10,108 bases of DNA from a virus. Below the pieces are notes generated by a model that did no database searches, was not told the origin of the DNA, and worked only from the letters and a program-made list of their open reading frames with translations. Made by a program: the position numbers and the translations under genes. Where the stretch lies: the UHGV virus genome UHGV-0351028; one strand, written 5' to 3'. How positions within the stretch are numbered: position 1 is the stretch's first letter; each line of letters begins with the position of its first letter. Positions 119 to 1,376 of this stretch are shown here, piece by piece.

Positions 119-897
119 ATTTCCTCAAACCTGTCGAGGTTGTGATACTCAAACTCAATCCACTGTTGCTTAGCGCCTTTCCCGCCACCAAACGGCACGG
201 ATAACGCCGAGATGCCGTATTGCGCATAGCTCATACAATCAATTTCGCCTTCGCAAAGCACAACCGCCCTCACGCCAGCGTCCAGAGCCTGCCATCCGAA
301 CAGGCAAGGTTCGCAATCACCTTCTGCCATAATGACTTTCTTCCCGTCCTGGCGCTCAGTGCTGATTCGCTTGACCTGCAACAACTCACCATCGCGTTTG
401 TACGGAATCACCAGAGCATCCAGTTCCCGCTCTCCATTCCACACCTTGCCGCTGACAACCTCGTAGCGCTTTACGATTTCTGGCGATATGCCACGCGATT
501 GCAGGTACTCAAGATGGGATTCTGTTCTGGTAACGTAGCGGGCGATTTTCTTGCGATCAGGTCTGGAGAATTTCTTCTCACGTCTGGCATCGAAATGGTG
601 ATCGTCATCCTTGATACCGAGAAATGCTTTCGCTTCCTGCATAGCCTGATGCAGGTTAATTCCACGACATGCCATCCACAAATCAAGCATGTCACCGCCG
701 TCTCCCTCAGCGAAATCAGCCCATTTTTTCTTGCCGCTAAGGTTGACCTTAAGGCTGTTTCCCTTGTCACCGTTGACGTTACCGGCAACCCACTCATGCC
801 CCTCTTTCTTGCCGTTTGGCAACAGGTGTGGAGCCACCCTGTCAACCTGCGCCCAAAGCAGGTCACTGAGTTCTGATGGACTCAAAGGTGCCTCCAT
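70..897 (-). CDS. Phage DNA primase (Toprim domain), C-terminally truncated by the IS insertion; the last 15 codons (70-117) are IS-derived
   Basis: 275-aa ORF with a Toprim acidic motif (VVLCEGEIDCMSY) and a primase-like N-terminal region (KWADFAEGDGGDMLDLWM). SD GAGGAA lies 4 nt upstream of the ATG at 897. The reading frame runs from phage DNA through the IS end at 118 to a stop at 70-72. Confidence 0.8.
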   Translation of the reverse strand: MEAPLSPSELSDLLWAQVDRVAPHLLPNGKKEGHEWVAGNVNGDKGNSLKVNLSGKKKWADFAEGDGGDMLDLWMACRGINLHQAMQEAKAFLGIKDDDHHFDARREKKFSRPDRKKIARYVTRTESHLEYLQSRGISPEIVKRYEVVSGKVWNGERELDALVIPYKRDGELLQVKRISTERQDGKKVIMAEGDCEPCLFGWQALDAGVRAVVLCEGEIDCMSYAQYGISALSVPFGGGKGAKQQWIEFEYHNLDRFEEIEPPRESWRLNFLRKR

Positions 898-1376
898 GCG
901 TTTCCTCTGCGGATTGTGGAAATTTGCATTTCACTCACTCCGTATTTAGTGGATAGTTCGCTTAGTTTCATACCAACAGAATTCCTGATATCAATCACAT
1001 CAGTTTCAGATAGTTTTGCCCTACCATTAAAAACTCCCTTTGCGCTTTTCAGTCCGATGCTAAAAGCATGTTTTAAATTCTCTGAGCAGGTACACCATTC
1101 CAAGTTCCAAATGGCGTTATCCGATTTGTCGCCGTTGATATGATTTACTTCTGGCTTGCAATACGGATTTGGGATAAATAATTGAGCTACAAGACGATGA
1201 ACTTTTAACGTCTTCTGAATCCCATCGGAACACAAAGTGACTCTTAGATAACCCTTGTTATCCGGAGATGGATTCAAAAACCTGCCTCTTAAATGTGAAT
1301 AAACACGACCGTCTTTGGTTACAGAGTATTTACCCTCATAACCAGGTATATATTCTCCAACTTCAAGGCTCATCAT
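882..1376 (-). CDS. HNH homing-type endonuclease
   Basis: 164-aa ORF with an HNH motif (VNHINGDKSDNAIWNLEWCTCSENLKHA) and a NUMOD4-like N-terminus (GYEGKYSVTKDGRVYS). SD GAGGGA precedes tandem ATGs, so the true start may be 1373. Overlaps the primase start by 16 bp. Confidence 0.85.
   Translation of the reverse strand: MMSLEVGEYIPGYEGKYSVTKDGRVYSHLRGRFLNPSPDNKGYLRVTLCSDGIQKTLKVHRLVAQLFIPNPYCKPEVNHINGDKSDNAIWNLEWCTCSENLKHAFSIGLKSAKGVFNGRAKLSETDVIDIRNSVGMKLSELSTKYGVSEMQISTIRRGNAWRHL

Follow-up and report, generated by a model that had tools for sequence, protein, structure and literature searches.

Introduction

Virulent phages, among them T4, T5, SPO1 and the Skunavirus group, are well known to carry free-standing HNH homing endonuclease genes; to our knowledge such genes have been much less studied in temperate lambda-like phages, in which they are usually annotated and then ignored. 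Here we describe a candidate of this kind in a 10,108-nucleotide stretch of the UHGV virus genome UHGV-0351028 (this whole stretch is referred to below as the window), which corresponds to the early region of a lambda-like (lambdoid) prophage. The gene in question, located at positions 882-1376 on the minus strand, probably represents a homing endonuclease gene of the I-HmuI-like HNH type, free-standing and with specificity for the 5' end of the lambdoid Toprim primase/helicase gene, a reading to which we assign a probability of roughly 75%.

I-HmuI of Bacillus phage SPO1, together with I-HmuII, I-BasI and I-TwoI, has the same three-part build as the protein described here, consisting of NUMOD4 hairpins, an HNH core and a C-terminal helix-turn-helix, and enzymes of the I-HmuI family are typically nickases. 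I-HmuI is, however, encoded in a group I intron of the DNA polymerase gene, whereas the HNH gene of the window stands by itself and has neither an intron RNA nor space for one, and the Asp74 which precedes the catalytic histidine of I-HmuI is replaced in the family described here by an invariant Asn78. T4 MobE and the I-HmuI-like HNH genes of lactococcal Skunavirus are likewise intron-less, located beside or between conserved genes of DNA metabolism and polymorphic for presence or absence among close relatives. The phylogeny of the Skunavirus genes clusters by insertion site and marker exclusion has been described for them (PMC12724721), while free-standing HNH homing endonuclease genes are able to mobilise flanking DNA through gene conversion (PMC2790892). 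In contrast with these genes of virulent phages, the one described here is found in temperate lambda-like prophages of Enterobacteriaceae, and rather than occupying an intergenic gap it seizes the start of its target gene, changing the primase N-terminus from MT to MEAPLS.

Two further groups of HNH proteins have to be distinguished from it. NixI of the Vibrio cholerae PLE also has an HNH/N core related to that of I-HmuI and is carried by a mobile element competing with a related virus, but its identity with I-HmuI is about 10% and it is not known to home (PMC9410903); the site-specific pattern of presence and absence found at the present locus points to self-propagation rather than to a pure weapon. 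The cos/terminase-associated HNH proteins of lambda-like and HK97-like phages share the HNH motif and occur in phages of the same hosts, but they are zinc-ribbon proteins encoded beside the terminase and needed for DNA packaging (PMC3592412), whereas the protein described here combines NUMOD4, HNH_3 and a helix-turn-helix, belongs to the replication operon and is not needed by the module. A packaging role was therefore rejected, as both domain architecture and genomic position differ.

Results

Presence and absence of the gene among related phages

A megablast search of positions 119-2344 of the window against 50,697 phage records returned 44 matching records, and in none of these (0/44) was the HNH part covered. 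In vB_EcoP-720R6, mEp043, Sf101 and SEN22 the flanks are 96.4-98.8% identical to those of the window, while the matched stretch is 1,735 bp long compared with 2,226 bp in the query, that is, 491 bp shorter. When the DNA of the HNH gene was itself searched against the same records, only short matches of 71-80% identity were obtained, all to unrelated HNH genes of Proteus, Enterococcus and Lactococcus phages, and no sequenced reference phage among the 50,697 records carries the gene. One of the empty-site phages, mEp043, grows on Escherichia coli K-12 (host MG1655 in record PV340537.1).

Similar proportions were found in bacterial genomes and viral metagenome collections. The junction is present in 292 of 5,426 complete E. 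coli genomes, with the HNH gene found in five of them and absent from 287; the gene is missing from all 25 loci of species-representative genomes (0/25) found using the N-terminal 259 amino acids of the primase as the probe, and occurs in seven of the best 80 IMG/VR loci identified with the primase probe. Scans of IMG/VR for the exact junctions yielded eight HNH-positive and 119 HNH-less contigs. The exact 164-amino-acid protein is recorded in a cluster formed at 90% identity, whose 121 member sequences were seen on 221 contigs.

The locus is therefore polymorphic for presence and absence at one exact site in otherwise homologous alleles, a pattern characteristic of homing endonuclease genes. 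The original prediction, made from the sequence of the window, had proposed a comparison with prophages lacking the open reading frame (ORF), and most of the near-identical modules (flanks 96-99%) do indeed lack it; it had also named universal presence with the replication module as the observation that would speak against a homing event, and the five occurrences among 292 E. coli junctions are the opposite of this. A search of the literature found nothing specific on an HNH gene between O and the primase gene in lambda-like phages.

Structure of the insert and of the empty site

The features needed to follow the comparison of the two alleles are listed below, with positions given in the window.

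882-1376, minus strand: HNH gene, an intact ORF with an ATG start, 164 amino acids
119-897, minus strand: 5' part (259 codons) of the Toprim primase/helicase gene (phrog_239, E 3.5e-57), the presumed target gene
1373-1480, minus strand: conserved ORF of 35 amino acids, MKSKIKSLLVAGYNHGWLSISFVDFWFKNLNLRES, between O and the HNH gene
1381..1385, minus strand: Shine-Dalgarno sequence GAGGG, upstream of the ATG at 1376-1374
895..908, minus strand: replacement primase start, with Shine-Dalgarno sequence AGAGGA at 908-903 and ATG at 897-895
874..876, minus strand: serine codon TCA at the 3' edge of the insert
HNH-less junction (mEp043): ...CTGAGGGAATCATGA / CGCCAAGT / GAACTTAGCGACCTG...
Junctions in the window: ...CTGAGGGAATCATGA / TGAGCC...(499 nt)...GAGTCCATCA / GAACTCAGTGACCTG...

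Alignment with mEp043 delimits an insert of 499 nucleotides (874..1372, minus strand), which replaces the eight nucleotides CGCCAAGT following the ATGA of the empty site and results in a net gain of 491 nucleotides. The two alleles are identical up to this ATGA in the alignment, and the same picture was obtained across about 115 loci in our table of junctions. Almost the entire insert is coding, the ORF occupying 495 of the 499 inserted nucleotides, and its GC content of 0.39-0.40 in the composition profile differs from the 0.50-0.54 of the primase gene and flanks.

The GAGGG sequence and the ATG at 1376-1374, which start the primase in HNH-less phages, start the HNH gene here, and the replacement Shine-Dalgarno sequence and ATG are embedded in the HNH codons ...R-G-N-A-W-R-H-L-stop. 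As the HNH stop codon (884-882) ends 13 nucleotides past the primase ATG (897-895), the two ORFs overlap by 16 nucleotides, in agreement with the original prediction of an HNH ORF placed within the replication module and overlapping the start of the primase. The insert thus takes the ribosome-binding site and ATG of the primase and supplies a replacement start from its own coding end. The primase N-terminus consequently reads MEAPLS-PSELSDLLW in the window and MT-PSELSDLLW in mEp043, and the insert explains both the existence of these two N-terminal forms and the differing primase starts chosen by gene callers (626 or 630 amino acids). Two solutions are found at the 3' junction: an overlapping primase start in the window and in loci L002, L004 and L009, and a TAA stop followed by a separate AAGGAGG in loci L006-L008.

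The ORF of 35 amino acids upstream of the HNH gene, for which no Pfam family was matched, is identical in mEp043, conserved in loci of other genera and called as a gene in loci L118, L124 and L125. Its TGA overlaps the next ATG (as ATGA) in HNH-positive and HNH-less alleles alike, and it is part of the phage backbone rather than of the insert, translationally coupled through the ATGA to whichever gene follows. The gene order originally proposed, with the HNH gene between the O-like initiator and the primase, is consequently correct as an order, although the immediate upstream neighbour is this small ORF and not O.

No intron family of Rfam was found in the window. A self-splicing intron of group I or II was rejected as an explanation of the insert on the basis of this result, of the ORF filling 495 of the 499 inserted nucleotides and of the primase restarting from its own ATG.

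A variant 5' junction, ATGACGCC / TGAGCC, was found in E. coli elppa4 (NZ_CP083512.1; locus L129, 1501-2045). This allele keeps four extra nucleotides of the empty site, so that the HNH gene and the ATG are no longer in frame, while the remaining insert is the same as that of the window. It is a single case, with no matches (0) to its junction in IMG/VR, and could be either a decaying copy or the product of imprecise repair.

Domains, predicted fold and catalytic residues

The assignment of the protein to NUMOD4/HNH-type endonucleases, originally made from the sequence alone, was borne out by three collections. Pfam recognises NUMOD4 at residues 9-48 (E 1.6e-10) and HNH_3 at residues 58-101 (E 2.3e-9), both above the curated cut-offs, PHROGs assigns the protein to phrog_59, "HNH endonuclease" (E 1.1e-56), and PADLOC to "HEase, homing endonuclease" (E 3.6e-21). 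The sole solved structure with sequence similarity is that of I-HmuI of SPO1 (PDB 1U3E), with residues 10-151 aligned (E 7.3e-14).

An AlphaFold2 model, built with 42 homologues, has a mean predicted local distance difference test score (pLDDT) of 92.4. When it was compared with the PDB using Foldseek, I-HmuI was again the sole significant match, over the full length (165 columns to 1U3E, E 1.4e-9, 27% identity). In the model, strands 17-19, 25-27, 44-50 and 53-58 constitute the N-terminal beta-hairpins (NUMOD4), and they are followed by a nuclease core of the beta-beta-alpha-metal HNH_3 type with H60, N78-H79, N87, N91, N100 and H103. Helices 124-132, 138-145 and 149-156, modelled with pLDDT above 90, form a C-terminal three-helix domain of the helix-turn-helix type (about 124-156); no Pfam helix-turn-helix family matched this part, and the assignment rests on the predicted structure.

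H60, N78, H79, N91, L92, E93, W94, N100, H103 and I130 are invariant in the 42 homologues, and N87 is conserved in at least 90% of the alignment. H79, the general-base histidine, and N100, the metal-binding asparagine, align with His75 and Asn96 of I-HmuI. A lack of conservation of the HNH catalytic residues had been put forward together with the original prediction as an observation against it, and here too the outcome was the opposite.

Nucleotide diversity and linkage around the insert

Nucleotide diversity (pi) was estimated from eight HNH-positive alleles which had been collected via the primase and are therefore unbiased by HNH sequence. It amounts to 0.0005 in the insert (one singleton in 503 nucleotides), compared with 0.0102 in the 330 nucleotides upstream and 0.0145 in the 750 nucleotides downstream, making the insert about 20-30 times less diverse than its flanks, while the flanks of HNH-positive alleles are as polymorphic as HNH-less alleles (pi 1.0-1.5%). 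In a four-gamete test of the presence or absence of the insert against flanking variants, all four combinations were found at +6 and +9 nucleotides after the serine codon and, on the upstream side, at -42 and clearly at -180 to -207. There are 14 distinct HNH-positive flank haplotypes, and several of the downstream haplotypes, including that of the window, have an HNH-less counterpart which is identical at all other informative sites.

Given that there is almost no diversity in the insert compared with 1-1.5% in the flanks, the insert is much younger than the polymorphism surrounding it, with exchange points lying very near to it, at least on the 3' side. The pattern is the product expected of repeated break-repair copying into resident alleles, and it supports, as indirect evidence at the population level, a recent horizontal spread of the insert.

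The identical protein was found in at least ten mosaic prophages with different immunity (cI/cro) types and nin regions. The initiator is of the HTH_36 type in two of ten backgrounds (L119 and L120) and of the Phage_rep_O type in the others, while in each of the ten the same Toprim primase gene follows directly downstream of the HNH gene; the association of the HNH gene is thus with the primase and not with O. In locus L123 (5548-6000) the HNH-primase pair directly follows a cI-like repressor gene, with no called cro, cII or O, an arrangement which is probably a deletion derivative.

The serine codon at the 3' edge

In all five lineages the insert is directly followed by CCA-TCN-GAA in every HNH-positive allele, whereas CCA-AGT-GAA is found in every HNH-less allele of the junction table whose primase is at least 97% identical. 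In IMG/VR, 119 HNH-less alleles have AGT and three have TCN, all three belonging to a lineage of about 69% identity; other HNH-less TCN alleles are those of the diverged lineages L017, L018 (Enterobacter sp. BRE11), L023 (Pantoea) and L033 (a Halomonas genome, with CCC-TCA). No close, E. coli-type HNH-less allele with TCN was found in the IMG/VR scans. The simplest reading is that CCATCA is the donor flank of a TCN-type lineage which was carried in with the gene, and the TCA codon may also protect its carrier from the carrier's own enzyme.

Relatives at the same site and elsewhere

Relatives of the protein at the same site, between the 35-amino-acid ORF or O and the Toprim primase, show 81% (Cronobacter), 75%, 73% (Enterobacter), 62% (Pantoea) and 61% identity, metagenome contigs being represented besides the three genera, while those of 50% identity or less are found in unrelated places in unrelated phages. 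Within the site-specific group the pairwise ratio of non-synonymous to synonymous substitution rates (dN/dS) is 0.09-0.17, with dS saturated for the most distant pairs, and the group is, on this estimate (dN/dS about 0.1), under purifying selection.

The E. coli and Cronobacter versions are without a nine-residue loop (e.g., SRPYSAGRI) at HNH residues of about 28-29 (about 1290-1293 in the window), which is present after ...VYSH in L004 (Enterobacter), L006 (Pantoea), L009 and L118. Near the 3' end of the Enterobacter-type HNH gene of L004, which has an overall amino acid identity of 73%, a 45-nucleotide window is 96% identical to the copy described here (about 4390-4525 in L004 against about 882-1010), and the last ~55 nucleotides are identical by eye, which points to mosaic exchange inside the endonuclease gene. 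Other genes of the HNH_3 or HNH_3+AP2 type, distinct from this one, were found in the nin regions of the HNH-positive prophages L120, L122 and L125-L128, as well as in L007 (6603-7151), where they follow the primase gene or are placed between NinB and Dam or between YbcO and RusA. Evidently there are several HNH genes of the free-standing type in lambda-like prophages.

The prophage region surrounding the gene

On the minus strand of the window the genes follow one another in the order cro, cII, the DUF2740 gene, O, the 35-amino-acid ORF, the HNH gene and the primase gene. The remaining features are the following.

1484-2344, minus strand: O-like replication initiator (Phage_rep_O, E 1.1e-37), context outside the mobile unit
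2337-2483, minus strand: DUF2740 gene
2516-2812, minus strand: cII
2950-3150, minus strand: cro
3251-3964, plus strand: cI repressor (HTH_3 and Peptidase_S24)
6014-6397, plus strand: N
plus strand: genes for Ral, cIII/Kil, an AAA ATPase, Abc2 and Ead/Ea22
1-118, minus strand: end of an IS3-family insertion sequence, with the transposase orfA start MTKNTRFSPEVRQRAVRMVLE at 64..2 (translation)

The insertion sequence cuts the primase gene after codon 259 (...NLDRFEEI), the full protein of mEp043 having 626 amino acids, and the listed ORF 70..897 runs through into its inverted repeat. Copies 100% identical to positions 1-118, annotated as "IS3 family transposase", are present in 3,606 of the 5,426 E. 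coli genomes, matches of these genomes to the window break at position 119, and the junction between the insertion sequence and the primase gene was not found in any complete E. coli genome of the collection. Because its primase gene is cut by this element, the prophage of the window is probably replication-defective. Its HNH ORF, which matches the common allele exactly, is intact.

The O gene (1484-2344) is a mosaic: its 3' part accompanies the primase in many Stx and Salmonella phages, and its 5' part (origin-binding, iterons) is swapped, which fits with a C-terminal domain working with the primase/helicase. Between cI and N, at the position of lambda rexAB, there is a two-gene cassette (4114-4593 and 4590-5522, both plus strand) matching a candidate defence system of PADLOC, PDC-M63A (E 1.8e-41; also Pfam DUF6932) with PDC-M63B (E 7.5e-45). 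The lambda cIII thermoregulator of Rfam (RF01804) was found at 6937-6995 on the plus strand with 88.5 bits, at the start of the cIII/kil region, which is ordinary for a lambda-like phage.

Discussion

The original prediction of an intron-less homing-endonuclease insertion is supported by the rarity of the gene, the near-invariance of the insert, the break in linkage within 6 nucleotides, the fidelity to one site and the invariant catalytic residues. A mechanism may be proposed by analogy with I-HmuI-type enzymes and with intron-less homing (Shen et al. 2004 as cited in PMC9410903; PMC2790892; PMC12724721). The HNH protein would be made during lytic growth from the early rightward operon (cro-cII-O-35-amino-acid ORF-HNH-primase), as the gene order suggests, when an HNH-positive phage develops in a cell which also contains an HNH-less relative, either a co-infecting phage or a resident prophage. 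The enzyme would bind the undisrupted empty site around ATGACGCCAAGTGAACT through its NUMOD4 and helix-turn-helix modules and nick or cut nearby, with a nick being converted into a break on replication. Recombinational repair on the HNH-positive template would then copy the gene in together with a very short donor flank including the CCA-TCA codons, and the carrier would be protected by having its site split by the insert, perhaps also by the AGT to TCA change in the serine codon.

Several observations weigh against this reading and should be borne in mind. Ordinary homologous recombination between the abundant HNH-less and the rare HNH-positive phages could give the same mosaic flanks. In an enlarged set of 18 alleles there is one segregating site in the 503-nucleotide insert against 47 in the 750 nucleotides downstream, but ten of the 18 were fetched by exact protein identity, which hides non-synonymous (though not synonymous) variation, the eight-allele set being free of this bias. 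The serine codon is located three nucleotides from the end of the insert, and physical linkage alone explains the perfect association of TCN with the insert and of AGT with its absence, which is thus no proof of self-protection. The out-of-frame gene of elppa4 shows that the gene can decay, and the copy in the window may never be expressed in a productive infection, because the primase of its prophage is broken by the insertion sequence.

In a rival account based on recombination, a single HNH insertion would have taken place and the gene would since have been moved solely through general homologous recombination within its conserved primase and O flanks, with no part played by an inactive or non-specific nuclease. 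Mosaicism is pronounced and recombination free among lambda-like phages, the same primase is surrounded by different immunity and nin modules, and one allele is out of frame, all of which are to be expected if the gene were passive cargo. We nevertheless regard this as unlikely: purifying selection in five lineages (dN/dS about 0.1) and the invariant catalytic residues argue for a maintained activity, breakpoints 6-9 nucleotides from the insert on one side are more easily obtained through break repair than through random crossovers over kilobases of homology, and an insert some 20-30 times less diverse than its flanks implies a spread faster than that of neutral linked variation. The reverse history, in which the HNH gene originally belonged to the replication module and was repeatedly lost, so that HNH-less alleles are deletion products, might be read from the occupation of the same site in five diverged lineages, as if by old vertical inheritance, but is scarcely credible. 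The junction ATGANNCCAAGTGAACT is uniform in more than 100 HNH-less alleles, the mEp043 alignment shows no direct repeats beside the insert that might drive a precise deletion, the base composition of the insert is foreign, and the near absence of diversity in the E. coli-type insert, against 1-1.5% in the flanks, makes the insert the younger part; the haplotype and diversity data already point to HNH-positive alleles as shallow tips on an HNH-less backbone.

It is also conceivable, though in our view quite improbable, that the nuclease mainly serves the phage, as an exclusion weapon nicking the primase gene or other sites of a rival or as a replication-accessory nickase, with mobility being secondary. 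There are precedents in NixI of the PLE, a distant I-HmuI-like nickase turned on the rival virus ICP1 (PMC9410903), and in the marker exclusion by I-HmuI-like HNH enzymes (PMC12724721), and the gene is located in the early replication operon in translational linkage with the primase. The module works without the HNH gene in more than 90% of relatives, however, so the protein is not a required replication factor, and with expression from an early lytic operon, as the gene order implies, the protein would offer no defence to the host of a repressed prophage. Cutting the empty allele, moreover, has both exclusion of rivals and homing as its outcomes, and this explanation therefore overlaps with that of a homing endonuclease gene rather than replacing it.

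A more far-reaching version of the homing interpretation, which we consider possible but doubtful, is that of a "start-codon-capturing" homing endonuclease acting as a gene drive among temperate lambda-like phages. In HNH-less relatives, either co-infecting or present as prophages, such an enzyme would cut the essential primase gene within its first few codons and would convert or exclude these relatives, with the change from AGT to TCA (three adjacent changes, same amino acid) being the actual protection determinant.

In conclusion, the locus is an ordinary kind of mobile element with unusually clear signs of recent spread, and constitutes a clean natural example in which empty and occupied alleles differ by one defined insert in DNA that is 98-99% identical, making it well suited to experiment. 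It shows an element sitting in an essential operon without harm, one translation start having been taken and another given. If the gene-drive version were true, the element would skew which of the replication modules prevails where prophages share one cell, and the locus would provide a natural system, tractable in K-12, in which homing between temperate phages could be measured. The general understanding of homing is left unchanged by these findings, but is extended to a new target and a new group of hosts.

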